Shown here: piece by piece, positions 1 through 12,471 of the stretch
Position numbering within the stretch: position 1 is the stretch's first letter
Layout of the letters: every line of letters begins with the position of its first letter
NCBI GenBank assembly: GCA_030652755.1
Contig: JAUSPV010000224.1
Location: 14,770-78,769, forward strand
Direction of reading: 5' to 3'
DNA length: 64,000 bases
Source of the DNA: Caulobacter sp.
GTDB taxonomy: Bacteria; Pseudomonadota; Alphaproteobacteria; Caulobacterales; Caulobacteraceae
Translations under genes and position numbers: made by a program
The notes under the pieces: generated by a model
Database searches by the model: none
Told to the model about the DNA's origin: nothing
Seen by the model: only the letters and a program-made list of their open reading frames with translations

Positions 1-152
1 TCTGGACCGACAGCCTGCCGGCCGGCGGCCAGGCCAACCCGATGGTCTACGAGCAGGACGGCAAGCAGTATCTGGTGATCATGGCCGGAGGGCACCACTT
101 CATGGAAACCCCCAACGGCGACTATGTGATCGCCTACGCCCTGCCGGGCTGA
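1..152 (+). CDS. C-terminal fragment of membrane-bound PQQ-dependent dehydrogenase (glucose/quinate/shikimate family), partial
   Basis: Frame from nt 3 reads WTDSLPAGGQANPMVYEQDGKQYLVIMAGGHHFMETPNGDYVIAYALPG*, the typical C-terminus of this family; TGA overlaps next ATG (TGATG). Confidence 0.85.
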   Translation, partial: WTDSLPAGGQANPMVYEQDGKQYLVIMAGGHHFMETPNGDYVIAYALPG

Positions 153-892
153 TGGGCGGCGTGGATCCCGACATCTGGACGCCCTACTGCGGCGTCGCCC
201 CGGCGCCGGCGAATTACCTTGAGCGCTGGAACCTCGACCCGCTGCTCCTGGGCGCGCTGCTGGGCTTGCTGCTCCTGCTTGTCTGGCGAGGGGATCCGGC
301 GCGCCGCGGGCTCGCGGCGGCGGCCGTCGCCGTGCTGGTCGTGAGTTTCGTCTCGCCGCTGTGCGCCCTGAGTTCGGCATTGTTCTCGGCGCGGACCGTG
401 CATCACGTCCTGCTGGTCGCCGCCGCGGCGCCCTTGCTGGCGTGGAGCCTGCCTGGGCGCAGGGTGGGGCCCCTGACCGTCGCCACCCTCGTCCCGGCGG
501 CGGTGTTCTGGTTCTGGCATGCGCCAGACGCCTATGCGGCCGCCCTGTCGAGCGACGGGCTGTACTGGGTGATGCAGCTCAGCCTGCTCGGCTCGGCTGT
601 CTGGTTCTGGATGGCGGTGAGGGCGGCGTCGGCGCCCGCCGCGATCGCCGCGCTTCTGGTCAGCATGGTCCTGATGGGCCTGCTCGGCGCCCTGCTCACC
701 TTCGCGGGCGCGCCGCTGTACGCGCCGCACCTGCTGACGTCCCGCGCGTTTGGTCTGGAGCCGCTGGAAGATCAGCAGATCGCCGGCCTTACCATGTGGG
801 CCCCGGCGGCGGCGGTCTACATGATCGCGGCCCTGACCGTGCTGGGTCATCGCCTTGGCCGGGATCGGAGCGGCGCGGGCAGGACCGCATGA
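152..892 (+). CDS. ctaG: Cytochrome c oxidase assembly protein, Caa3_CtaG family
   Basis: Multi-TM protein with HHVLLV, FWFWHAPDAY and DQQIAGLTMW motifs; lies in oxidase cluster. Confidence 0.8.
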   Translation: MGGVDPDIWTPYCGVAPAPANYLERWNLDPLLLGALLGLLLLLVWRGDPARRGLAAAAVAVLVVSFVSPLCALSSALFSARTVHHVLLVAAAAPLLAWSLPGRRVGPLTVATLVPAAVFWFWHAPDAYAAALSSDGLYWVMQLSLLGSAVWFWMAVRAASAPAAIAALLVSMVLMGLLGALLTFAGAPLYAPHLLTSRAFGLEPLEDQQIAGLTMWAPAAAVYMIAALTVLGHRLGRDRSGAGRTA

Positions 893-1623
893 TCGACAAG
901 CTTGTCGTCAGGGTCCTTGAGTGGGCCGCGGGCCACGCGGACGAGGGGCGTTTCTCGCCGGTCGCCATCGCCTTTCACTGGACCATGGCGGCGCTGGTGC
1001 TCTTCCAGCTGGGCTGGGGCTGGTGGATGGGTCGACTGCCGGTGGGCGGCGACAAGGTCGCGGCCTACGAGCTGCACTTTCTGATCGGCATTCTGATGCT
1101 GCTGCTGGTCGCCGGTCGCGCGGGCTGGCGGTTGCTGGCGCCCGAGGTGATCAACGACGCCGACAAACCGGGCTGGGAAAGCACGGCCGCCCGGATCACC
1201 CACTACGTCTTCTACACCTGCCTCTTCGGGCTTCCGCTCTCGGGCTGGGCGATGGTCTCGGCCACCGCCCGCGAGCAGGAGCTGACGGTTCTGGGCCTCA
1301 TCACCTGGCCGCTGCTGCCGTTCCAGACCCTGTCCAACCCCGGACTCTGGCAGGTCGAGGCCATCGCCGAGTGGCTGCACTGGGGGCTTGTCGTCAGTCT
1401 GCTGCTTATGATCCCTCTCCACATCGTCGGGGCCCTGAAGCACCAGTTCATCGACCGGGACGATGTATTCCATGGGATGCTGCCAATCGTGCCGAAGCCG
1501 CCTCGGCGGCGGACACGCTGGCAACGTCGATATCGGGCCGTGGAGAAGAAGGCAGCGTCTCTAGCCAGACGGCTATGGCGTCTATTTCCGGTTCGGTCAG
1601 GGGCGCGGCCGCGGCGGTCATGA
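889..1623 (+). CDS. Di-heme cytochrome b (cytochrome b561-like)
   Basis: Four TM helices with His ligand motifs AFHW, YELHFLIG, WLHWGL, LHIVGALKHQF; ATG at 889 overlaps ctaG stop (ATGA). Confidence 0.85.
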   Translation: MIDKLVVRVLEWAAGHADEGRFSPVAIAFHWTMAALVLFQLGWGWWMGRLPVGGDKVAAYELHFLIGILMLLLVAGRAGWRLLAPEVINDADKPGWESTAARITHYVFYTCLFGLPLSGWAMVSATAREQELTVLGLITWPLLPFQTLSNPGLWQVEAIAEWLHWGLVVSLLLMIPLHIVGALKHQFIDRDDVFHGMLPIVPKPPRRRTRWQRRYRAVEKKAASLARRLWRLFPVRSGARPRRS

Positions 1624-2185
1624 TGCCGCGCGGATCGTTGCGCCGTTCCGAGCGAAGCCAGCGCCGCAGCTGCTCGACCGTGTAGCCGGCGGGCTGTCCC
1701 GCGAGGGCGGGGTTGGCGGGGCCGACGCCCTGACCGGCCGGGCCGTGACAGACGGCGCAGGCGACCAGACCCCTGGCCGGATCTCCGGTCAGATACAGCG
1801 CCGGCCCCGGCGTCGGCGACCCGGTCGAATCCGTCACAGGGAGCGCCGCGTAGTAGGCCGCGACCGCGCGTCGGTCGTCGTGGCCAAGGCGTCTGGCGAT
1901 GGGCGTCATGATCTCGTCATGGCGCAGGTCGGCGGCATAGTCGTCGAGCTGCTTCTGCAGATAGCCCGCGTCCAGGCCGGTCAGGCGGGGCGCCCCAATG
2001 CCGTCCCCCTGGCCGTCCATGCCGTGACAACTGAAGCAGGCCTTGGCCGCCCCCGCTTCGCCACCGCTCAGGGCGATCAACTCGCCAGTGGCGGTGAAGG
2101 GGTCTCCGGTCCGGTCGGCGTCCGGATGGCAGCCAGCGGCGAGGCCGGCGGCGAGGAGCAGGAGAATGGCGGCGCGCACACCCAT
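1448..2185 (-). CDS. Di-heme cytochrome c4-like protein, probable lipoprotein
   Basis: Two CxxCH motifs (CFSCH, CAVCH), P-x-L-x-G and YL-x-x-QL c4 patterns, N-terminal signal ending LAAGC. Start may be GTG at 2179. Confidence 0.85.
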   Translation of the reverse strand: MGVRAAILLLLAAGLAAGCHPDADRTGDPFTATGELIALSGGEAGAAKACFSCHGMDGQGDGIGAPRLTGLDAGYLQKQLDDYAADLRHDEIMTPIARRLGHDDRRAVAAYYAALPVTDSTGSPTPGPALYLTGDPARGLVACAVCHGPAGQGVGPANPALAGQPAGYTVEQLRRWLRSERRNDPRGIMTAAAAPLTEPEIDAIAVWLETLPSSPRPDIDVASVSAAEAASARLAASHGIHRPGR

Positions 2186-2187
2186 TC

Positions 2188-2244
2188 AACCCTGATCAAC
2201 GCCGACGGTTCCGGCGCGGGAACCGAGGGCGGGGCCAACGGGTT
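2188..2244. promoter_or_regulatory. Back-to-back sigma-EcfG/SigT-like promoters
   Basis: Minus strand GGAAC (2212-2208)-N16-GGTT (2191-2188); plus strand GGAAC (2219-2223)-N17-GGTT (2241-2244). Each is one base off the GGAAC-N16/17-CGTT consensus. Confidence 0.5.
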
Positions 2245-2312
2245 GAGATTCAACGGCAGGCGGGGAGGCGCGAAGCCCCATCGGACAGGCGGAGCAGAGC
2301 ACCAGGACGGCT

Positions 2313-2666
2313 GTGATCGCGGCCTTGAGCCTTGTCGGCGCCTGCGCCGACAAGACCAATACTCCGCGCCTGATCGCCGGCGGCGATCCTTCGCGGGGCC
2401 TTGCCGTCATCGAGGAGGTCGGGTGCGGCGCCTGCCACGATATCCCCGGCGTCGGCTGGCCGCGCGGAACGGTAGGGGGGCCTCTGAAGGGTTTCGCCGT
2501 TCGCCCCCTCATCGCGGGCCGGTTTGCCAACCAGCCGGACACGCTGGTGACCTGGCTGAAGGACGCCCCCTCGCTGTCGCCCGCCAGCGGAATGCCGACG
2601 ATGCCGATCGCAGAGGACCAAGCCCGCGACGTCGCGGCCTACCTGTACACGCTCGATGACCATTGA
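2313..2666 (+). CDS. Mono-heme cytochrome c, probable lipoprotein
   Basis: CGACH, distal MP motif, lipobox VGAC. Start uncertain. Confidence 0.8.
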   Translation: MIAALSLVGACADKTNTPRLIAGGDPSRGLAVIEEVGCGACHDIPGVGWPRGTVGGPLKGFAVRPLIAGRFANQPDTLVTWLKDAPSLSPASGMPTMPIAEDQARDVAAYLYTLDDH

Positions 2667-3615
2667 ACGCGCCCCTGAAGGCTTCGCCGGCTGGCCGCCG
2701 CCGATCCTCGATCCGGCCGGCCCTTTCGCGGGGCCGGTCAACATCCTGTCGTGGATCCTGTTCGCCATGAGCGCGGTCGTGCTGGTTGTCGTGCTGGCGG
2801 CGCTGGCGGTGGCGTTGTTCGGACCAAAGCGCTGGCGGGTCCGGCTGGGCGGCGAGCGGCTCGTCTGGATCGGCGGTCTGGCGTTTCCGGTCGTGGTGCT
2901 CAGCGCGCTGCTGATCTATGGCCTGGGTCTCACCAGTCATCTGACCGACGATCCGCGCCCCGGCGAGGTCCGCATCAGGGTCACCGGAGAGATGTGGTGG
3001 TGGCGGGTGGCCTATCTCGACGGCGGCGGCCGCGAGGTGCTGCAGGACGCCAATGAAATCCACATCCCCGCCGGCCAGCCCGTCGTGTTCGAGCTGGAGT
3101 CGGCGGACGTCATTCACAGCTTCTGGGTGCCGCGCCTGGGCGGCAAGAAGGACATGATCCCCGGCCGGCGCAACATTTTGCGGCTGCAGGCCGATGCGCC
3201 GGGCGTGTTTGGCGGCCAGTGCGCCGAGTACTGCGGCGGGCCGCATGCGCTGATGGGTCTGGTCGTCGTCGCCCACCCGCCGGCCGAGTTCGAGGCCTGG
3301 AAGCGAAGACGGCTGGCGCCATCCCTGGCCGCCGGCCTGCCGTCACGCGGGACCGAGGTGTTCGACGCCTCGGGCTGCGGAGCCTGCCATACCGTGCGCG
3401 GGACCGCGGCCAACGGCCTCGCCGGTCCCGACCTCAGCCATGTCGGCGACCGTCGAACCCTCGGCGGCGGCATTCTTCCGACCAATCAGGGGACCCTGGC
3501 CGGCTGGATTTCCGACAGCCAGGCGATCAAGCCCGGCAACCGCATGCCCGCCTATCCCGTGCTGTCCGGCGAGGATCTGCGCGCGGTCGCGGCCTATCTC
3601 GAGAGCCTGAAATGA
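2656..3615 (+). CDS. coxB: Cytochrome c oxidase subunit II with fused C-terminal cytochrome c (caa3 type)
   Basis: MWWW loop, DVIHSFW, CuA motif CAEYCGGPHALM, C-terminal CGACH and NRMP. Confidence 0.95.
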   Translation: MTIERAPEGFAGWPPPILDPAGPFAGPVNILSWILFAMSAVVLVVVLAALAVALFGPKRWRVRLGGERLVWIGGLAFPVVVLSALLIYGLGLTSHLTDDPRPGEVRIRVTGEMWWWRVAYLDGGGREVLQDANEIHIPAGQPVVFELESADVIHSFWVPRLGGKKDMIPGRRNILRLQADAPGVFGGQCAEYCGGPHALMGLVVVAHPPAEFEAWKRRRLAPSLAAGLPSRGTEVFDASGCGACHTVRGTAANGLAGPDLSHVGDRRTLGGGILPTNQGTLAGWISDSQAIKPGNRMPAYPVLSGEDLRAVAAYLESLK

Positions 3616-6152
3616 CGTCCGAAACCGGCTTCGACCGGACGCTGTACGAGCGCTTCCCGACCACGGAGCCGCGCCCGCGGGACGAGCTGGACGAGCTCGA
3701 GGCGGTCTGGTGTCGGCCTCGCTCGACCTGGCAGTGGATGACCGCGATCAACAACAACTTCGTCGGGGTCTACTACGTCGGCGCGGCCATGCTGTTCTTC
3801 GTTCTGGCGGGGCTTCTGGCCCTGCTGATGCGGACCCAGCTGGCGTTGCCGCTGAACGGTTTCCTGCCGCAGGAGACCTACAACCAGATGTTCACCGTGC
3901 ACGGGACGGCGATGATGTTCCTGTTCGCGGTGCCGGCGGTGGAGGCGCTGGGCGTCCTGCTGTTGCCGCAGATGCTGGGCGCGAGGGATCTGCCGTTCCC
4001 GAGGCTCAGCGCCTATGCCTTCTGGGCCTATCTGATCGGCGGCCTGGCCTTCTTCTGCTCGCTGCTGTTCGGGCTGGCGCCGAGCGGCGGCTGGTTCATG
4101 TATCCGCCGCTTAGCAACATCACCTACTCGCCAGGGATCAACGCCGACTTCTGGCTGCTGGGGATCGGTTTCATCGAGATCTCGGCCATCGCCGGCGCCA
4201 TCGAGATCATCGTTGGCGTGCTGCGGACCCGCGCGCCGGGCATGACGCTCGACAAGCTGCCGGTGTTTGCCTGGGCGATGCTGATCTTCGCCTGCATGAT
4301 CATCATCGCCTTCCCGTCCATCATCCTGGCGACCACCCTGATGGAGCTGGAGCGCGCGCTCGGCTGGCCCTTCTTCGATCCGGCCCGGGGCGGGGATCCG
4401 ATGCTGTGGCAGCACCTGTTCTGGTTCTTCGGACACCCGGAGGTCTACATCATCTTCCTGCCGGCGGCGGGCGCGATGTCGACCATCGTGCCGGTGGTGG
4501 CCCAGACGCCGCTGGTCGGCCACCGGCTGGTGGTGCTGGCCATGCTCGCGACGGGCTTCATCAGCTTCGGCGTCTGGGCGCACCACATGTTCACGACCGG
4601 CATGCCGACCATCTCGACCAGCTTCTTCTCTGCGGCGTCGGCTGCAGTCTCGATCCCGGCCGGCATCCAGGTCTTCAGCTGGATCGCGACGGTCGGCTCG
4701 GGAAGGATGCGCTTCAACACGCCCGGACTGTTCGTGCTCGGCAGTCTTGTCATCTTCACCATGGGTGGTCTGACCGGGGTCATGGCCGCCATGGTCCCGT
4801 TCGACTGGCAGGTTCACGACACCTACTTCATCGTTGCGCATCTGCATTACGTGCTGATCGGCGGCATGGTCTTTCCGCTGTTCGCCGCGATCTATCACTG
4901 GATGCCCATGGTCAGCAGTCGCCCGCTCAGCGACCGGCTGGGCAAGTGGGCGTTCTGGCTGATGTTCACCGGGATGCATGCGACCTTCTTCACCATGCAC
5001 CTGACCGGCCTGATGGGCATGCCGCGGCGGGTCTATACCTACCTGCCGGGACGCGGGCTGGACCTGCCCAACCTGATATCGACGATCGGCGCCTTCCTGT
5101 TCGCGGCCGGCGTGCTGATCTGGGTGATCGACATGATCCGCAACTTCCGGCCGTTCGGCGCCCGCAACGCCGGCAATATCCATGACGCGCCCGGCCTGGA
5201 GTGGTTGCCGAACGGACTCTACTCGGTGCGCTCGATCCCGGTGGTCTCCAGCCTCTACCCCCTCTGGGACCAGAAGGGACTCGCCGGCGACGTGGAGGCC
5301 GGGCGCTACTTCCTGCCGCGCACGGCGACGGGGCATCGCGAAACCATCCTGACCAGCACCCTGAACGCCGAGCCGATCGCCCTGATGCGCCTGCCGCAAC
5401 CGTCGGGCTGGCCGCTGTGGGCGGCGCTGTTCACCGCGGGATTCTTCCTGCTGCTGACCGTGCAGGCCTACTGGCCATCGGTGGTCAGCGGCGTGCTCGC
5501 CATCTACTGCATCATGACCTGGGCATGGTCGCTCGACCGGCCCCTGCCGCAGAAGACGGTCGACATCGGGGCCGGCATCCGCGCGCCGACCTACGTGAGC
5601 GGCCCGGCGAGTCACGGCTGGTGGGCGATGGTCATCACCCTCGTTGTCGGCGGCATGGTGCTGGCCATGAGCGCCTTCAGCTATGTCTTCCTGTGGAGCC
5701 GCAACCCGCAGAGCTGGGCGCCCCCGCCGGAGGTCGCCTCGCTGGCGATGCTGCTGGCCATGAACGCCGCGGGGGTGCTGCTGGCCTGGGGCGCCTGTCG
5801 AATATTGCGAAGGGGGGGGCGAGTGCGTGCGGCGCTGGCGACCCTGCTCATGCTGCTCGCGGTCGGTCTGGTCGGCGGCGCCTGGGGCCTGGATCTGAGC
5901 GCCTGGCTTGCAACGGGCCTCGATCCCACCGTCAACGCCCAGGGGGCCACCGTCTACGCCTTCATGGCCTGGCAGGGCTTCTTCGTCTCGGTGGCGGGCC
6001 TGATGGGGCTCTTCCTGCTCCTGCGGTGGATGGCCGGCCTTGTGCGCGCCGACTGCCCCTCCACCGTCGATCTGATCGCGCTGTTCGTCGCCTACACCGC
6101 CGGGCAGGGGGCCTTCGCGGGGCTGCTGCTGCGCCTGTTCCCGGGCTCCTGA
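3612..6152 (+). CDS. ctaD: Heme-copper oxidase subunit I fused to a subunit III-like C-terminal domain
   Basis: 846 aa from ATG 3612 (ATGA overlap); TVHG, WFFGHPEVY, VWAHHMF, HDTY, AHLHY, MPRR; about 250 extra hydrophobic C-terminal residues. Confidence 0.95.
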   Translation: MTSETGFDRTLYERFPTTEPRPRDELDELEAVWCRPRSTWQWMTAINNNFVGVYYVGAAMLFFVLAGLLALLMRTQLALPLNGFLPQETYNQMFTVHGTAMMFLFAVPAVEALGVLLLPQMLGARDLPFPRLSAYAFWAYLIGGLAFFCSLLFGLAPSGGWFMYPPLSNITYSPGINADFWLLGIGFIEISAIAGAIEIIVGVLRTRAPGMTLDKLPVFAWAMLIFACMIIIAFPSIILATTLMELERALGWPFFDPARGGDPMLWQHLFWFFGHPEVYIIFLPAAGAMSTIVPVVAQTPLVGHRLVVLAMLATGFISFGVWAHHMFTTGMPTISTSFFSAASAAVSIPAGIQVFSWIATVGSGRMRFNTPGLFVLGSLVIFTMGGLTGVMAAMVPFDWQVHDTYFIVAHLHYVLIGGMVFPLFAAIYHWMPMVSSRPLSDRLGKWAFWLMFTGMHATFFTMHLTGLMGMPRRVYTYLPGRGLDLPNLISTIGAFLFAAGVLIWVIDMIRNFRPFGARNAGNIHDAPGLEWLPNGLYSVRSIPVVSSLYPLWDQKGLAGDVEAGRYFLPRTATGHRETILTSTLNAEPIALMRLPQPSGWPLWAALFTAGFFLLLTVQAYWPSVVSGVLAIYCIMTWAWSLDRPLPQKTVDIGAGIRAPTYVSGPASHGWWAMVITLVVGGMVLAMSAFSYVFLWSRNPQSWAPPPEVASLAMLLAMNAAGVLLAWGACRILRRGGRVRAALATLLMLLAVGLVGGAWGLDLSAWLATGLDPTVNAQGATVYAFMAWQGFFVSVAGLMGLFLLLRWMAGLVRADCPSTVDLIALFVAYTAGQGAFAGLLLRLFPGS

Positions 6153-6153
6153 C

Positions 6154-6468
6154 ATGCGACGCTGGATATTCACCCTGGGCGGTCTGCTTCTCTGGGCGGT
6201 CCACTTCGTCGGCGTCTACGCCATCGCCAGCCTGGCCGACACCGTCAGCACCGCCGACGCGGTCGGCTGGCGCATGGCGGCGCTGGCCTTCAGCGGCCTG
6301 TGCCTGCTGGCCGTTCTCCTGCACCTGCTCCTGGCGGTCAGGCGCCTGGCGTCGCCCTCCGCAAGCGGAGCCGCCGATCATTTCATGAGCCAGGTGGCCG
6401 CCATGGGCTCGGCCTTGGCGCTTCTGGCCATACTCTGGCAGACCTTGCCGACGCTGATCGGCTACTGA
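6154..6468 (+). CDS. Small membrane protein, probable accessory oxidase subunit
   Basis: 104 aa, three hydrophobic segments, begins 1 nt after subunit I stop. Confidence 0.65.
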   Translation: MRRWIFTLGGLLLWAVHFVGVYAIASLADTVSTADAVGWRMAALAFSGLCLLAVLLHLLLAVRRLASPSASGAADHFMSQVAAMGSALALLAILWQTLPTLIGY

Positions 6469-6643: not shown

Positions 6644-8464
6644 ATGCGGCTTTCGCGGCGCGACTTCGGATTTGGACTTGCGGCGACGGCGGTCGCGGCC
6701 CCGGCCGCCCGGGCGGCGACCCCCGCCGCCGGCCATGACCAGCAGCTTACCGCCTACCTCGACCAGGCCTTCGAGCAGGAGCTGGCGATGGAGCCGGAGC
6801 GGCTCACCCGGCTGGGCCGCAAGACGCTGAACGACCGCTTCACGGATCGATCAGACGCCGGCCGGCTGCAAAGGCTTGAGTGGCGTCGGCGCAACGTGGC
6901 CGAGATGAAGCGTCGGTTCGATCCGGCGAAGCTCGGCGAGGACGCCCGGACCTCCTGGGACATGTGGGTTCTGGAGCTTGAGCGCGAAGAGGCCGACTAC
7001 CGCTGGCGGGATCACGCCTACGTCTTCGGGCGGAACGGCGCGCATACCGCGCTGCCCGGCTTCATGATCAACACCCACAAGGTGGACAGTCTGGCCGACA
7101 TGGAGGCCTACATCGTCCGCGTCGCGGCGATCGGCCCGACGCTGGATGGGGAGCGCGGCAGGGCCGAGCGCGCCGCCGCCGCCGGGGTGCGGATGCCGCG
7201 CTTCGCCTATGATCAGTCCATCGAGGAAGTGCGGCGGCTGGGCGTCGGCGCGCCGTTCGGCGAGGCGCCTGACGCGGCGCTGTTCGCGGACGCCAAGGGC
7301 AAGATCGCGGCGCTGCGCGCCGCGGGCGCGATCGACGACGCGCAGGCCACGCGGCTGACGGACGCTGTCGCCGGCGCCATGACCGCCAGGATGAAGCCCG
7401 CCTACGACCGGCTGGGCGCCTGGCTGGTCGCCGACCGGGAGAAGGCGTCGGCCGAGCCCCAGGGCGCGGGGGCGCTGCCCGACGGCGCGGCCTTCTACAA
7501 CGCCATGCTGCGGCTGCAGACCACCACGGACATGTCGGCCGACGAGATCCATGCGCTGGGCCTTGCCGAGGTGACGCGGATCCGCGCCGAGATGGAGACG
7601 CTCAAAGGCAAGATCGGGTTTGCCGGCACGCTGGAGGAGTTCTTCGTCTTCATGCGCACCGACGACCGCTTCTACGTGTCCGACGACGACGCCGGCCGGG
7701 CGCGCTACCTCAAGCTGGCCGAGGACTATCTGGCGGCGATGAAAGCCAGGCTGCCGCAGTACTTCGGTCGGGTGCCCCGGTCGGACCTGGTCGTCAAGGC
7801 GGTGGAGGCCTATCGCGCCGAGCCGGGCGGGGCGGCGCACTACAACTCCGGCTCCCTGGCGGCGGGACGCCCGGGCGTCTTCTACGTCCATCTGGCTGAC
7901 ACCCGCGCGACGCCGACCTATGAGATCGAGGGCACGGCCTATCACGAGGGCTGGCCGGGCCATCACATGCAGATTTCGCTGGCCCAGGAGATGACCGGGC
8001 TCCCGACCTTCCGCACGCAGTCGGGCTACGGGGCCTATGTCGAGGGCTGGGGTCTGTACGTCGAGCGGCTGGCCAAGGAGATCGGCTTCTACGAGGACGA
8101 GTACAGCGACTTCGGCCGGCTGGGGCGCGAGATCTGGCGGGCGATCCGACTGGTGGTCGACACCGGCATTCACGCCAAGGGCTGGAGCGAGGCGCAGGCC
8201 CTGGCCTTCTACACCGCCAACTCGCCGCAACCGGTCGCCAAGATCCGGTCCGAAATCCGCCGGTACTTCGTCATGCCGGGGCAGGCCACGTCCTACAAGG
8301 TGGGCATGGTCAGGATCCTGGCCCTGCGCGAGCAGGCGCGTGAGGCGCTGGGCGCCCGGTTCGATCTGCGCGCGTTCCACGATGTGGTGCTGGGAGCCGG
8401 GGCGCTGCCGCTGCCTGTGCTGCAGGCCCGCGTCGATCGTTGGGTGGCCCGGCAGGCGGCCTGA
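6644..8464 (+). CDS. DUF885 family protein with Tat signal, probable metallopeptidase
   Basis: SRRDF twin-arginine signal; YHEGWPGHHMQ, EGWGLY, RAIRLVVDTG and PGQATSYKVG motifs; SD AGGAG upstream. Confidence 0.9.
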   Translation: MRLSRRDFGFGLAATAVAAPAARAATPAAGHDQQLTAYLDQAFEQELAMEPERLTRLGRKTLNDRFTDRSDAGRLQRLEWRRRNVAEMKRRFDPAKLGEDARTSWDMWVLELEREEADYRWRDHAYVFGRNGAHTALPGFMINTHKVDSLADMEAYIVRVAAIGPTLDGERGRAERAAAAGVRMPRFAYDQSIEEVRRLGVGAPFGEAPDAALFADAKGKIAALRAAGAIDDAQATRLTDAVAGAMTARMKPAYDRLGAWLVADREKASAEPQGAGALPDGAAFYNAMLRLQTTTDMSADEIHALGLAEVTRIRAEMETLKGKIGFAGTLEEFFVFMRTDDRFYVSDDDAGRARYLKLAEDYLAAMKARLPQYFGRVPRSDLVVKAVEAYRAEPGGAAHYNSGSLAAGRPGVFYVHLADTRATPTYEIEGTAYHEGWPGHHMQISLAQEMTGLPTFRTQSGYGAYVEGWGLYVERLAKEIGFYEDEYSDFGRLGREIWRAIRLVVDTGIHAKGWSEAQALAFYTANSPQPVAKIRSEIRRYFVMPGQATSYKVGMVRILALREQAREALGARFDLRAFHDVVLGAGALPLPVLQARVDRWVARQAA

Positions 8465-8520
8465 GGCGGCGTCAGTGAGCGTGGCGCGCGAGGCTTTGAG
8501 GGCCACGCGCGCCACCCCAG

Positions 8521-10941
8521 CTAGAACTCGCCCTTGAGTGTCACGCCCCAGGTGCGTTCGTCGCCGGGCTGGCCCACGATCAGGCCGGTGTTACCCGGGC
8601 CGAGCGCCAGTTGTTCGAAGTACTCTTCGTCGAAGGCGTTGCGCACCCAGCCGAAGATGTCGAAGCCTTCGTCCGTCCGGAAGCCGGCCCGGAAGTTGGC
8701 CAGCGAGTAGCCCTTGATGTTGGTGTAGATCGAAGGCGACGCGTTCGAGGAGAAGTCCGAGCGATAGCTGGCCTCGAAGCCGATGTAGCCGGAACCTTCG
8801 CGGCCCAGGAACGTCACCGGCCGGCTGGCTTCCGCGCCGTAGGAGAAGGCCCACTTCGACACCCCGGGCAGGCGGCCGCCGGAGATGTCGCAGTTTGCGG
8901 GGCTGAGACCGCCGGGCGTTCCCGGCGCGGACGGAGTCTGACCGGCCCCGACGGTGGTTCCACCCGCCAGTTCGGGCGGGCAGGGGGCGTCGACGAACTT
9001 CACGTACCTGGCGTCGGTGTAGGCGCCGTTGACATAGGCCGACAGCCATTCGCTGGGCCGAACGGAGAAGTCGAACTCAACGCCCTGACTCCGGACCTGC
9101 TCGGCGTTGGCCAGATAGCCGCGCAGCACGCCGAACTGGCCGTTGGTGACGGTGGCCTGGAAGTCCTCGATGTCGGTGCGGAAGATCGAGAGGTTGAGGA
9201 TGGCGCGACCGTTCCAGAATTCGGTCTTCAGACCGCCCTCGAGGTGCGTCACGTCTTCCGGTTTGATCGTGCCCGCCGACAGGATCGGGTTGCCGGCGGC
9301 GTCGGTCGGCAGGCCGTTCTGGTTGACGCCACCGGTCTTGAAGGTCTTGGCGACCGTGGCGTAGCCCAGAACGTCCGGCGTGAACCGGTAGCTTCCCGTC
9401 AGATCATAGCTGAAGTTGGTGTCGCTGAACTTGGGCGCGCTGAGCTGCGGCGCGAGAATGCCGCGCTGGGCGACCTTGATCGGGTCGGTCTGGCCGAACA
9501 GCACCGGATTGCCCTGGCCGTCGAAGACCTTGCGCTCGTAAAAGCCTTCCTTCTTGTCGTAGTTGATCCGGATCCCGGGCTGGATCGTGAAGGCATCGGT
9601 CAGCTTCCAGCTGAGCTGTCCATACAGCGCGGCACTGGTGTTCTTCAGGTACTGGGTGTTGAGCGCCGTCAGGCCATCGAGGACCGCCGGGTTGTTCGCC
9701 AGGGCGCCGGTAAGGCTCCAGCGGCTGGCGTTGGCGCCGTTCTGCTCGATCCCCTGGGTGTCGATCCGCTGATAGAAACCGAAGGCGCCGAGCACGAAGT
9801 CGAGACGGTCGCCTGAGTAGGCGTAACGCACCTCCTGGCTGTACTGGTCCTGCTGGGACGGGTTGTTCGACTTCGAAACGATCGACAGGCCGATGAAGTC
9901 GCGATCGTTTTCGGGCTTCCAGTCCCAGAACCGCCAGGCGGTCACGGCGGTCAGGACGCCCGGGCCGACGTTCCACACCACGCGCGCCGAAGCGCCGCCA
10001 ATCTCGTTGCCGGCGTTGAGATTGGCGTCGACATCGGTGATGCGGTCAAACGGATTGGTGCTGGGAACAGCGTAGCCCTGGGCCGCGGCCAGGGCGGCGT
10101 ACTGGCGGGCCAGCGGGCGCTGGGTGGCGCCGGTGCGGACGTAGATCTGCGCGCAGCATTCCGGGTTCTGGTCGCTGTAGTCGGCGCTCAGGGTGATCCG
10201 CAGGTCCTCGTTCGGACGGAACAGCAGCTGGGCGCGGAGGCCCAGGTTGTCCTGCTCGTTGATCCTGTTCCCGGTCGTCACATTGTAGATCGTTCCGTTG
10301 CGGCTCGTGGACGAGATGGCGAGGCGACCCGCGAGGGTCTCGGTCAGAGGTCCGGACACCACGCCTTTGGCCTGCCTGAAGCCCAGGTTGCCAACCGTCA
10401 GTTCGGCCCTTCCTTCAAAGTCGAAGGTCGGCGCGTTGCTGGTGATGTTGACCGCGCCGGCCGTGGTGTTCTTGCCGTACAGCGTGCCTTGGGGGCCGCG
10501 CAGCACCTCGACCTGGGAGATGTCGAGGAAGTCGAATGTCGCGGCCGCTGCGCGGGCGTAATAGACGTCGTCGACATAGATGCCGACGCCCTGTTCGAAA
10601 CCGTCGCTGGTCAAGCCGAACGGAACGCCCAGGCCACGGATGTTGACCGTCGTGTTCCGCGGGTTGGACGAATAGTACTGGAAGGTCGGAGTCAGCTGCT
10701 GCAGCCGGCCGACCGTGAACACGCCGGCGTTCTCGACCGCGGCGGCGCTGAGCACCGAAATGGCGACCGGCACCTCCTGCACGCTTTCGGAACGGCGGCG
10801 CGCGGTCACGATCAGCGCATCGACCGTGGACTCCGCCTCGGCGGTGGTCGTCGTGGCCGCGACTTCTGTTTCGGCATAGGCGACGGTGGCCGCGCCGCAC
10901 AGCAGGGCGGTCAACAGACCGCGATGGAAGACCTTGTACAC
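8521..10941 (-). CDS. TonB-dependent receptor
   Basis: Signal peptide, TonB box region LIVTARRR, plug motif LRGPQGTLYGKNTTAGAVN, C-terminal aromatic residue (KGEF). Confidence 0.95.
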   Translation of the reverse strand: MYKVFHRGLLTALLCGAATVAYAETEVAATTTTAEAESTVDALIVTARRRSESVQEVPVAISVLSAAAVENAGVFTVGRLQQLTPTFQYYSSNPRNTTVNIRGLGVPFGLTSDGFEQGVGIYVDDVYYARAAAATFDFLDISQVEVLRGPQGTLYGKNTTAGAVNITSNAPTFDFEGRAELTVGNLGFRQAKGVVSGPLTETLAGRLAISSTSRNGTIYNVTTGNRINEQDNLGLRAQLLFRPNEDLRITLSADYSDQNPECCAQIYVRTGATQRPLARQYAALAAAQGYAVPSTNPFDRITDVDANLNAGNEIGGASARVVWNVGPGVLTAVTAWRFWDWKPENDRDFIGLSIVSKSNNPSQQDQYSQEVRYAYSGDRLDFVLGAFGFYQRIDTQGIEQNGANASRWSLTGALANNPAVLDGLTALNTQYLKNTSAALYGQLSWKLTDAFTIQPGIRINYDKKEGFYERKVFDGQGNPVLFGQTDPIKVAQRGILAPQLSAPKFSDTNFSYDLTGSYRFTPDVLGYATVAKTFKTGGVNQNGLPTDAAGNPILSAGTIKPEDVTHLEGGLKTEFWNGRAILNLSIFRTDIEDFQATVTNGQFGVLRGYLANAEQVRSQGVEFDFSVRPSEWLSAYVNGAYTDARYVKFVDAPCPPELAGGTTVGAGQTPSAPGTPGGLSPANCDISGGRLPGVSKWAFSYGAEASRPVTFLGREGSGYIGFEASYRSDFSSNASPSIYTNIKGYSLANFRAGFRTDEGFDIFGWVRNAFDEEYFEQLALGPGNTGLIVGQPGDERTWGVTLKGEF

Positions 10942-11106
10942 CTAGCTACCCCCAGTGCTTTTTTGCTTGGAGGTCGTGGTATAGGCTTCAAAGCCCATCG
11001 GAACGATAGGGATTTAAATTGGGCCTCTATCAGCTTTTCTGGGGAGAGTTCGCCCGGCGGCGGCCCCGGCTGGCCGCAGGAGGCAGGATGGGCTACGCCG
11101 GCAATC

Positions 11107-12471
11107 ATGACGGCGAAGAAGGCTCCAGCCTCGGCCCGGCGACTGACGGCGGCCAATCTCGAAGCGCTCGGCGCCGAAAGCCTCGCCGCGCTACTGCTGG
11201 AACTCAGCGACAGCCAGCCGGCGCTCAAGCGACGACTGCGCATGGAGCTGGCGGCGCGGGTCGGCGCTCCGCATCTGGCCGAGGAGATCGACAAGCGACT
11301 GGCCATGATCGGGGGCAGCAAGGCCAAGGTCTCCTGGCGCAAGCGGCCTGAGCTGATTCTCGATCTGCATGTCCTGCGCCGGATGATCGCCGGGCGTCTG
11401 GCCGATCTGGACGCCGGGCTGGCCATGCGACGACTGTGGACCTTCCTCGACCTCGCCGATGGCCTGTCCCTGCGGGTCAAGGACCCCAAGGGCGAGCTGG
11501 CGCAGGTCTTCGTGGCGGCGGCGGAGGATATGGCCGGCCTGGCGGGGAGGGCGCCGGCGGATATCGCCCTGGCCGGCGAAGTCGCCGACATGCTGTTCCG
11601 CGGCTCGGCGTCGTGGGCCGAGCGACTGGGCCCGGCCCTCGCCGGTTTCGGACAGGTCTTCGGCGCTGCCGTTCAGGCCGAGCTCAAGGCCCGTATCGCA
11701 GCCCGGCCGGCGTTCAAGCCCTCGGCCCGGGTGCTGCGCGCCGTGGCCGACGCGGCCGGCGACGTCGACGCCTTTCTGGAGACCGTGCCCTCCACCCTGC
11801 GTCACGATCCCGGCACGGCGGCGGCGGTCGGGCGTCGGTTGCTCGGCGCCGGGCGCATCGAGGAGGCGCTGGCGACCCTGCAGGCGGCCGATCCGCGCAA
11901 CCGGGCCCGCGCCCTGGACGGCCGCCCCGATCCGGCCGCCGAGCCCTGGTATGAGGCCTGGATCGAGGTGCTGGAAAGGTCCGGCGAGACCTCGGCGGCG
12001 CACGAAGAGCGCTGGGCGACGTTCGAGCGGACGCTGTCGACAGATCAGCTCCGTCGGTTCCTCAAGGGGCTGCCGGACTTCGATGACGTCGAGGCGAGCG
12101 ACCGCGCGTTCGAAGTCGCGGCGCGATACCCCGCTTTCGCCGAAGGGCTGGCCTTCCTGATCGCCTGGCCGGCGCTGCCAGAAGCGGCGGCGATGGTGCT
12201 GGCGCGGCGGGACGAGGTGGGCGGCGACGCAGGAGCGCTGGCCGAATGGTCCGCCCGGCTGGACGCCCGCTACCCTCGCGCGGCTCTGGTGCTGCTACGG
12301 GCCGCCATCAGCAGCCTGTGGTCCCGCCCTGCCACGCGCGCCGACGCCGAGCCGCTGGCGGACGAGGCCGAGGCGCTTGCCCGGCGCATCGACGACCTGG
12401 GCGGCCTGGAGAGCCACGAGGCCTTCGTAACCCGTCTGACCGCCCGCCGGCAGTTTCCGACCCGGCGGTAG
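11107..12471 (+). CDS. Conserved hypothetical helical protein (DUF6880-like)
   Basis: 454 aa from ATG 11107; N-terminal NLEALGAESLAALLLEL and C-terminal RYPRAALVLLRA/HEAFV patterns resemble this family from memory. Confidence 0.65.
   Translation: MTAKKAPASARRLTAANLEALGAESLAALLLELSDSQPALKRRLRMELAARVGAPHLAEEIDKRLAMIGGSKAKVSWRKRPELILDLHVLRRMIAGRLADLDAGLAMRRLWTFLDLADGLSLRVKDPKGELAQVFVAAAEDMAGLAGRAPADIALAGEVADMLFRGSASWAERLGPALAGFGQVFGAAVQAELKARIAARPAFKPSARVLRAVADAAGDVDAFLETVPSTLRHDPGTAAAVGRRLLGAGRIEEALATLQAADPRNRARALDGRPDPAAEPWYEAWIEVLERSGETSAAHEERWATFERTLSTDQLRRFLKGLPDFDDVEASDRAFEVAARYPAFAEGLAFLIAWPALPEAAAMVLARRDEVGGDAGALAEWSARLDARYPRAALVLLRAAISSLWSRPATRADAEPLADEAEALARRIDDLGGLESHEAFVTRLTARRQFPTRR

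Follow-up and report, generated by a model that had tools for sequence, protein, structure and literature searches.

A caa3-type oxidase cluster with its own cytochrome b561 and lipoprotein cytochromes c, often sited beside periplasm-facing PQQ-type dehydrogenase genes in Caulobacterales and Sphingomonadales

The window analysed here is a stretch of 64,000 nucleotides from a Caulobacter sp. (contig JAUSPV010000224.1), and its first 6468 positions hold a gene cluster for a caa3-type cytochrome c oxidase. The cluster brings its own CtaG assembly factor, a dihaem cytochrome b561 and two lipoproteins with three further c haems between them. It lies very often beside genes for periplasm-facing dehydrogenases of the pyrroloquinoline quinone (PQQ) type, and the linkage is non-random. 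The parts suggest a plug-in respiratory branch without bc1, in which electrons would pass from a PQQ dehydrogenase to ubiquinol, b561, the c-type cytochromes and finally the oxidase; the case for this feeder model falls somewhat short of an even chance. A wider reading, that b561 and the c4-like and monohaem cytochromes together form a third, minimal quinol:cytochrome c oxidoreductase that lacks a Rieske protein and subunits of the alternative complex III type and makes the caa3 oxidase self-sufficient in oxidising quinol, spread by plasmids and serving as the dedicated outlet for periplasmic PQQ-dependent sugar oxidation in Caulobacterales and Sphingomonadales, is doubtful, if serious enough to be weighed.

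Open reading frame (ORF) calls and profile matches confirm eight adjacent genes in this region, as the original prediction had it (Table 1). The overlapping stop and start codons it described are also present: the PQQ dehydrogenase gene runs into ctaG through TGATG, ctaG into the b561 gene through ATGA, and coxII into coxI through another ATGA; the genes for the monohaem cytochrome c and CoxII share 11 nt, and a gap of 1 nt separates the CoxI/III gene from the small gene that follows. Its count of four c-type haem motifs over three proteins is likewise borne out. All four CxxCH motifs are kept in every one of the 85-87 orthologues available per protein: two in the c4-like protein (87/87), one in the monohaem cytochrome (85/85) and one in CoxII (85/85).

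Table 1. Features of the oxidase cluster, in window positions
Feature	Position	Strand	Evidence and remarks
Membrane PQQ dehydrogenase, 3' end	3..152	+	Last 49 codons plus stop; TIGR03074 tail match, E 4.6e-20
Caa3-type CtaG (Bacillus-type CuB insertion/assembly factor)	152..892	+	PF09678, E 6.3e-25
CybB-like dihaem cytochrome b561, 244 amino acids (aa)	889..1623	+	PF01292, E 1.4e-26
Dihaem c4-like cytochrome c lipoprotein, 245 aa	1448..2185	minus	Two CxxCH; lipobox LAAGC
Divergent intergenic region, 127 bp, between c4 and the cytochrome c/oxidase genes	2186..2312		Presumed bidirectional promoter, from gene positions
Monohaem class I cytochrome c, 117 aa, probably a lipoprotein	2313..2666	+	PF00034, E 3e-4; one CxxCH
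CoxII, two transmembrane helices, CuA and fused C-terminal cytochrome c	2656..3615	+	PF00116 and PF00034; TIGR02866
CoxI with C-terminal extension, 846 aa	3612..6152	+	PF00115, E 6e-145
Small membrane protein, 104 aa, about three transmembrane helices (hydropathy)	6154..6468	+	No family

The proposal that the eight genes form one module holds for a core of seven: CtaG, b561, c4 (minus strand), cytochrome c, CoxII-c, CoxI/III and the small membrane protein. They do not make up one operon. The c4 gene is antisense and converges on the b561 gene with an overlap of 176 nt (window 1448-1623), so the region comprises at least three transcription units. Scans for sigma-70 promoters and terminators gave nothing above shuffled sequences, the search for a consensus sigma-70 promoter in the divergent intergenic region included. 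The description of the cluster as self-contained was overstated, since it has no ctaA/ctaB (haem A synthesis), pqq or Sco/PCuAC genes. These are also absent from 30 larger ORFs scanned in the rest of the window, which are mostly housekeeping genes, and neither the cluster nor these 30 ORFs include a Rieske protein, a bc-type cytochrome b or ActABCDEF. Window G+C is about 70%, and sequence matches come from groundwater and soil metagenomes; the organism is Caulobacter-like.

The core is conserved well beyond this contig. A b561-anchored scan of species-representative genomes used a profile built from a close b561 alignment (a 16-sequence b561 alignment was too diverse), and the best 80 of 202 matches were taken, all of them in Caulobacterales (Brevundimonas, Caulobacter and Phenylobacterium). 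More distant contexts came from plasmid tblastn searches and from exact-protein look-ups of b561 orthologues at 41-54% identity in their own contigs. Order and orientation of the seven genes are fixed in essentially all 80 Caulobacterales loci, and the core as a whole is found at about 90 loci on chromosomes and plasmids of Caulobacterales and Sphingomonadales. CtaG is conserved in 88 loci, and the small 104-aa gene follows CoxI/III in at least 60. The same seven genes lie amid metal-transporter genes on the conjugative plasmid pSYA3-1 of Sphingobium yanoikuyae, and they recur on other sphingomonad plasmids, from Sphingobium, Novosphingobium, Sphingorhabdus and Aurantiacibacter. The core is therefore horizontally mobile as one unit and brings its own cytochromes with it.

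The membrane PQQ dehydrogenase named in the original prediction is correctly identified, and only its last 49 codons lie within the window. The full gene (798 aa) was recovered from an overlapping public contig (L001:5423-7819; L numbers denote the loci compared). Its product matches TIGR03074 end to end (964.9 bits, cut-off 832.65), is 39% identical to Escherichia coli Gcd over the whole length, N-terminal membrane domain included, and has hydrophobic segments at the N-terminus by hydropathy. It is a membrane-bound PQQ dehydrogenase of the glucose/quinate/shikimate family (TIGR03074), and family membership points to ubiquinone as its probable acceptor.

Such a dehydrogenase is encoded directly upstream of ctaG in 20 of the 80 Caulobacterales loci and adjoins the cluster in 5 of 11 b561-type contexts from other orders; in the look-ups of distant orthologues, every untruncated cluster adjoins a PQQ dehydrogenase 66-73% identical to that of the window. 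Three gene arrangements are found. In architecture A (this window), the dehydrogenase gene is co-directional with ctaG and upstream of it; in architecture B (L088 from Sphingosinicella, L094 and L095), it is divergent from ctaG; in architecture C (L089 and L092), b561 is forward, CtaG and c4 are reverse, and CoxII, CoxI/III, the small gene and the PQQ dehydrogenase are forward. Dehydrogenase identity across these arrangements (66-73%) is close to that of CoxI/III (64-68%). Persistence of the link through three rearrangements speaks against both chance and a single inherited synteny. Adjacency overall is 25/91, against a rough estimate of about 1% by chance, which assumes one to three dehydrogenase copies per genome of about 4 Mb and counts neighbours within 10 kb either side. 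Membrane PQQ dehydrogenases adjoin none of the five b561-less clusters, against those 25 of 91 with b561, in a sample too small for significance. At 57 of the 60 Caulobacterales loci that have no such gene, at least 2.6 kb of upstream sequence is available, and the genes upstream of ctaG vary there. The membrane PQQ dehydrogenase is thus a recurrent, optional partner of the core, and the link is optional both ways.

On an Aurantiacibacter plasmid, a membrane PQQ dehydrogenase with 62% identity lies in a copper-resistance island (CopA/CopB, multicopper oxidase, RND efflux), and the oxidase core is about 80 kb away.

Another type of dehydrogenase is the commoner neighbour in Caulobacterales. In the window's contig, 3.6 kb upstream of ctaG and outside the window (L001:2076-3796), lies a translationally coupled pair of genes for a 143-aa DUF2231 membrane protein and a 430-aa GSDH/TrAA12-like lipoprotein of the 'sorbosone dehydrogenase family'. 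A GSDH-like gene lies 30-2921 nt from the core in 39/80 Caulobacterales loci, against 20/80 for the membrane PQQ dehydrogenase, nearly always together with DUF2231 and in four placements (upstream or downstream, on either strand). The two kinds of dehydrogenase are almost mutually exclusive, with both present at one locus only, and a PQQ-type dehydrogenase of one kind is close to the core in 58 loci out of 80. The pair also adjoins the core on S. xenophagum and Aurantiacibacter plasmids, and it stands beside b561-less clusters on Sinorhizobium meliloti pSymB and Sphingobium pKN1; in the Bosea cluster, the GSDH-like dehydrogenase gene alone is annotated as a neighbour. The loci at which the pair or a dehydrogenase was also recorded are among L004-L083, L086, L087, L099, L101 and L102. 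A periplasm-facing sugar dehydrogenase gene beside this oxidase family is a recurrent theme.

On a Sulfitobacter pontiacus plasmid (L098:1936-5160), a set of three genes resembling an FAD (flavin adenine dinucleotide) gluconate-2-dehydrogenase, namely a subunit 3 family protein, a GMC oxidoreductase and a c-type cytochrome, lies just upstream of a b561-less type-a cluster. Directly upstream of the DUF2231/GSDH pair in the window's contig is a minus-strand gene (L001:540-1925) for a ferric-reductase-like membrane flavocytochrome, with Ferric_reduct, FAD and NAD (nicotinamide adenine dinucleotide) binding domains, which was not found at other loci.

The b561 protein has four transmembrane helices, with an additional helix at the N-terminus (residues 2-18) and a basic one at the C-terminus (210-231). 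Its AlphaFold2 model (mean pLDDT 85.9) is closest among solved structures to E. coli CybB (PDB 5OC0; Foldseek TMt 0.82), and the second-best Foldseek match is the cytochrome b of hydrogenase-1, a protein that exchanges electrons with a periplasmic partner. The haem-ligand histidines H30, H63, H164 and H178 are invariant in 89 orthologues. Residues R81, H105, H185 and D191, which correspond to the quinone-site residues R63, H87, H158 and D164 of CybB, are kept in 84-88 of these 89 (at least 94%). In the positions of the superoxide-collecting cations, however, CybB R30, R35, R108 and K134 are replaced by M47, G53, T126 and A160, and the equivalent of CybB R38, K56, is the only antenna position still basic (62/89 orthologues); residue roles for this comparison are those of PMC11869295. 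The haems of CybB, at -23 and +48 mV, are rapidly reduced by ubiquinol (bioRxiv 10.1101/2021.12.23.473985). Since the quinone-site residues are kept, the superoxide antenna is lost and CybB is reduced by ubiquinol, b561 has very probably kept the ability to react with the quinone pool on the cytoplasmic side, with another partner than that of CybB on the periplasmic side. These features speak against action as a superoxide oxidase. They are compatible with a feeder from quinol to cytochrome c, and equally with quinol-driven reduction of some other periplasmic acceptor. Orthologues of this group (41% identity or more) were found only beside CtaG, c4 and the oxidase. Relatives at or below 41% identity (L090 and L091) stand beside YceI genes and were excluded as a different functional group.

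The c4-like protein matches PF00034 in two stretches and has a lipobox in 76 of 87 orthologues. Among equivalog models, none scores above its cut-off (the best, PdsA, reaches 42.9 against 330), and there is a weak match to QcrC. The convergent 3' overlap of the b561 and c4 genes is 137-188 nt long at 80 or more of the 89 loci. The tail of b561 that it encodes (RRRTRWQRRYRAVE...) is conserved and predicted to be helical (pLDDT about 85), and its variability by codon position (0.25, 0.30 and 0.32) indicates that neither frame dominates. At loci of architecture C, the gene whose 3' end b561 overlaps is ctaG, not c4.

The oxidase itself is of a known type. CoxII scores 152.7 for TIGR02866 (cut-off 147.7), and its CuA site H...CAEYCGGPHALM and C-terminal CGACH, read from the translation, give the caa3 arrangement. 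CoxI aligns along its length with the Paracoccus enzyme (1AR1) and has the metal ligands and His-Tyr pair in TVHG, GHPEVY, AHHMF and VAHLHYV, likewise read from the translation, together with the D-pathway Asp (in GARDLPFPR) and the gating Glu (GHPEVY). The position that, judged by its motif, corresponds to R. sphaeroides N139 is Ser. By its sequence, the enzyme belongs to the A family of haem-copper cytochrome c oxidases and is of caa3 type. The K pathway is altered: in the alignment with 1AR1 (window 4659-4685, residues 350-358, IPAGIQVFSW), Paracoccus K354 is replaced by Gln353, and T351 by Ala. Both changes recur in every orthologue with a motif match (77 of 78 examined, all with Gln at the K354 position) and in the type-a, b561-less oxidases, which come from Rhizobiales, Azospirillum and Sulfitobacter. 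COX1 proteins of the A family that lack the K channel are already on record (bioRxiv 10.1101/2020.03.01.968255). The CoxII position of the K-entry Glu looks non-acidic when read by eye.

The C-terminal extension of CoxI is about 290 aa long, with about seven hydrophobic segments by hydropathy, and its last 286 aa have no Pfam match (COX3 included) and no PDB sequence match even at E <=10. The literature term for such a long CoxI is a 'COX1-3' fusion, according to the available passages of PMC4013037 and PMC4986455. The length of 846 aa and the seven or so additional segments would suit such a fusion, and the extension has no detectable sequence similarity to COX3. Profile searches with the 104-aa membrane protein returned no family match; its place after CoxI/III makes it a candidate for a small subunit of the oxidase, akin to subunit IV. 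Among described operon types, the cluster fits 'COX operon type a' of Degli Esposti and colleagues, characterised in the same passages by a CoxII-c fusion, a CoxI of about 850 aa and a Caa3_CtaG gene, with ctaG prepended in one subtype (PMC4013037, PMC4986455). Those passages of PMC4013037 place PQQ (MxaF-like) dehydrogenases in a different operon type, a-II, and those of PMC4986455 remark that COX1-3 proteins are 'inexplicably annotated as cytochrome B561'; neither set mentions a b561 gene, an antisense c4 or a glucose-type membrane PQQ dehydrogenase. Literature searches found no description of this module, of the b561/c4 addition or of the recurrent dehydrogenase partners. The type of oxidase cluster is thus known, and the addition and the partners are, as far as these searches show, undescribed.

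In the feeder model, the membrane PQQ dehydrogenase would oxidise a periplasmic sugar or polyol and reduce ubiquinone. b561 would oxidise ubiquinol at a CybB-type site near the cytoplasmic face and send the electrons through the membrane to the two lipoprotein cytochromes (c4-like and monohaem), from which they would reach the haem c of CoxII, CuA, haem a and the a3-CuB centre, where O2 would be reduced. Where GSDH-like lipoprotein dehydrogenases are present, they could reduce the same c-type cytochromes directly. The outcome would be an oxidase branch independent of bc1, probably with a lower energy yield than bc1-aa3.

A number of points weigh against this model. We know of no PF01292 protein with proven quinol:cytochrome c reductase activity. 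As Caulobacterales possess bc1, they would not need a bypass. In CybB the quinone site faces the cytoplasm, and oxidising quinol at such a site would dissipate part of the energy. The gene-neighbourhood survey suggested with the original prediction found the co-occurrence it expected for the seven core genes, which travel together, but not for the whole set: no membrane PQQ dehydrogenase is present at 60/80 Caulobacterales loci or at 6/11 other b561-type contexts, and its homologues occur at 60-67% identity in unrelated contexts without an oxidase. Homologous oxidase clusters also occur without b561, in Sinorhizobium, Bosea, Azospirillum, Sulfitobacter and Sphingobium pKN1, and b561 is therefore not required by this oxidase family. 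In the Rhizobiales relatives, a single c-type cytochrome gene (about 375-380 codons) replaces b561, c4 and the monohaem cytochrome c. On S. meliloti pSymB (L086:5817-6941), this replacement is a transmembrane-anchored trihaem protein with three CxxCH, whose extra c haem count equals that of c4 plus the monohaem cytochrome; Bosea (L087:6864-8012) has a c-type cytochrome gene of similar size in the same position. The b561 gene always lies next to ctaG, by start/stop or convergent overlap, which fits an assembly role equally, and several plasmid copies of the core lie amid metal-homeostasis genes. The sequence matches in public runs include no RNA run.

One alternative is an ordinary caa3 oxidase fed by bc1. 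The c4-like and monohaem lipoproteins would then be tethered carriers between bc1 and the oxidase, b561 would assist CtaG, for instance as a cupric reductase that draws on quinol and provides Cu(I) in the periplasm for CuA and CuB, and the dehydrogenase genes would be co-located only for co-regulation. Bacillus and Paracoccus offer well-known cases of cytochromes c tethered to the membrane between a bc complex and caa3. The accessory role of b561 gains from its constant contact with ctaG (through ATGA in architectures A and B, through overlapping, converging 3' ends in C), from the CDF transporter, P-type ATPase, DUF411 and CorA genes around sphingomonad plasmid cores, from conserved Met47 and Met122, predicted to lie near the periplasmic face, and from a conserved quinone site that suits a quinol-driven reductase of any periplasmic acceptor. 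However, homologous CtaG proteins do without b561 in Sinorhizobium, Bosea, Sulfitobacter and Sphingobium pKN1, the periplasmic loops of b561 have no His/Cys/Met-rich metal site, and the linkage with the PQQ dehydrogenase through three rearrangements is left unexplained. We consider this alternative unlikely, though it deserves real weight. Electrons might also flow the other way, from GSDH-like dehydrogenases through c4 and b561 to ubiquinone, which would make b561 an entry into the quinone pool. The cytochromes b of hydrogenases and formate dehydrogenases, members of PF01292 like b561, work in this direction, and the hydrogenase-1 cytochrome b, which reduces quinone, is also a fold match; CybB, too, reduces quinone in its forward reaction, and the GSDH-like lipoprotein is the commonest neighbour. 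Such a route is nevertheless improbable, given that transfer from class I c-type cytochromes to ubiquinone is normally uphill, that the cytochrome c oxidase of the same cluster is a far better acceptor for reduced c4, that the membrane PQQ dehydrogenase reduces quinone by itself, and that GSDH and DUF2231 genes also accompany b561-less clusters.

Very improbable is the view that adjacency of the PQQ dehydrogenase reflects chance or lineage-specific synteny and has no functional meaning. Its absence from the 60 Caulobacterales loci and from plasmid-borne copies, and the presence of similar PQQ dehydrogenases in unrelated contexts, would fit; three arrangements in distant lineages, with dehydrogenase identities (66-73%) near those of CoxI/III (64-68%), and a frequency of 25/91 far above the expected 1% or so do not. 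A role of b561 outside the main electron path, as a CybB-type superoxide oxidase or an LcoA-type radical detoxifier protecting the membrane, has a slighter chance still. E. coli superoxide oxidase is its closest solved structure, and b561 relatives at or below 41% identity occur with YceI lipocalins, as in the LcoA/BcnA system (PMC9113575). Against this, the superoxide-collecting cation cluster is lost in the orthologue group, the cluster has no YceI gene, and the group occurs only beside CtaG, c4 and the oxidase.

Compared with known systems, the oxidase stands closest to Thermus thermophilus caa3 (2YEV) and to 'type a' COX, which likewise have a CoxII-c fusion and a CoxI of about 840-860 aa. 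Chain A of 2YEV aligns over residues 39-611, and we take GHPEVY here to be A1-like, as against A2 in the Thermus caa3. Operons of 'type a' COX likewise place Caa3_CtaG before the catalytic genes and a small hydrophobic protein after them. In the actinobacterial bcc-aa3 supercomplex (6ADQ, 6HWH), a dihaem cytochrome c bridges the quinol-oxidising cytochrome b unit and aa3 with no soluble carrier. Of solved structures, mycobacterial CtaD scores best against the CoxI part. The cluster here has no Rieske protein and no bc-type cytochrome b, and its b561 comes from an unrelated family. Its b561 shares with E. coli CybB the fold, the four His haem ligands and the quinone-site residues; it differs in being 25% identical, in having lost the antenna, in its extra cytoplasmic N- and C-terminal helices and in being encoded in an oxidase cluster. 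E. coli Gcd, which the dehydrogenase resembles over the full length, reduces ubiquinone. Quinol oxidases take up the resulting quinol in E. coli, where Gcd has no linked gene for a cytochrome c oxidase.

Alternative complex III (ACIII) is a large multi-subunit Nrf/PSR-like complex, ActABCDEF. The cluster contains no Act genes, and the only candidate for the same role is the 244-aa four-helix dihaem cytochrome b with two small lipoprotein cytochromes c. Where ACIII genes lie beside caa3 genes ('COX operon type a-I' in the available passages of PMC4013037), the quinol:cytochrome c link is independent of bc1, which is the logic put forward in the original prediction. In the chains from quinoprotein methanol or ethanol dehydrogenase through cytochrome cL or c550 to aa3, PQQ dehydrogenase and oxidase genes are clustered too, and dedicated c cytochromes bring the electrons to the oxidase with no part for bc1. 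Those dehydrogenases are, however, soluble and reduce cytochrome c directly, and the a-II operon has a COX1-COX4 fusion, again in the passages available (PMC4013037). An extra quinol-oxidising step would be needed here because the dehydrogenase is of the quinone-reducing membrane type.

Downstream of the cluster (window 6644-12471) lie genes for a DUF885 protein (6644..8464), a TonB-dependent receptor (8521..10941, minus strand) and a DUF6880 protein, none of which is conserved beside the cluster elsewhere; the receptor resembles PqqU only weakly (46 bits, cut-off 1200). The sphingomonad plasmid cores (L084, L100, L101, L102 and L105) lie amid genes for CDF transporters, a P-type ATPase, CorA and DUF411, and a link with copper is possible. 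Genes of the sodium:calcium antiporter family occur beside or inside oxidase clusters (L086:7925-8998, L088:4626-5666 and L101:14595-15635), the one of S. meliloti between coxII and coxI. DedA-family genes (L085, L098 and L102) and ExoD-like genes (L089 and L101) also recur by these clusters. PQQ enzymes bind Ca2+, so a role of such neighbours in calcium supply is conceivable. At one locus of architecture C (L093:12281-14694), an island with a phage-type integrase and ArdA replaces the genes after coxII, and the oxidase is truncated there.

To our knowledge, electron transfer from quinol to cytochrome c is the work of just two enzyme types, complexes of the bc1/b6f type and alternative complex III. 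If the wider reading is right, the same task would be done far more simply, by a four-helix dihaem cytochrome b and two small lipoprotein cytochromes. This would explain how a cytochrome c oxidase moved by plasmids still finds electrons in new hosts, and in bacteria other than acetic acid bacteria and enterobacteria, PQQ-dependent periplasmic oxidation would gain an alternative to quinol oxidases as its outlet. Should b561 turn out to be an assembly factor, the cluster would still offer a new lead on the purpose of the poorly studied K-channel-less 'type a' oxidases, and this lead rests on their repeated siting by periplasm-facing sugar dehydrogenases, whether membrane PQQ enzymes, GSDH-like proteins with DUF2231 or, in Sulfitobacter, an FAD gluconate-dehydrogenase-like set.

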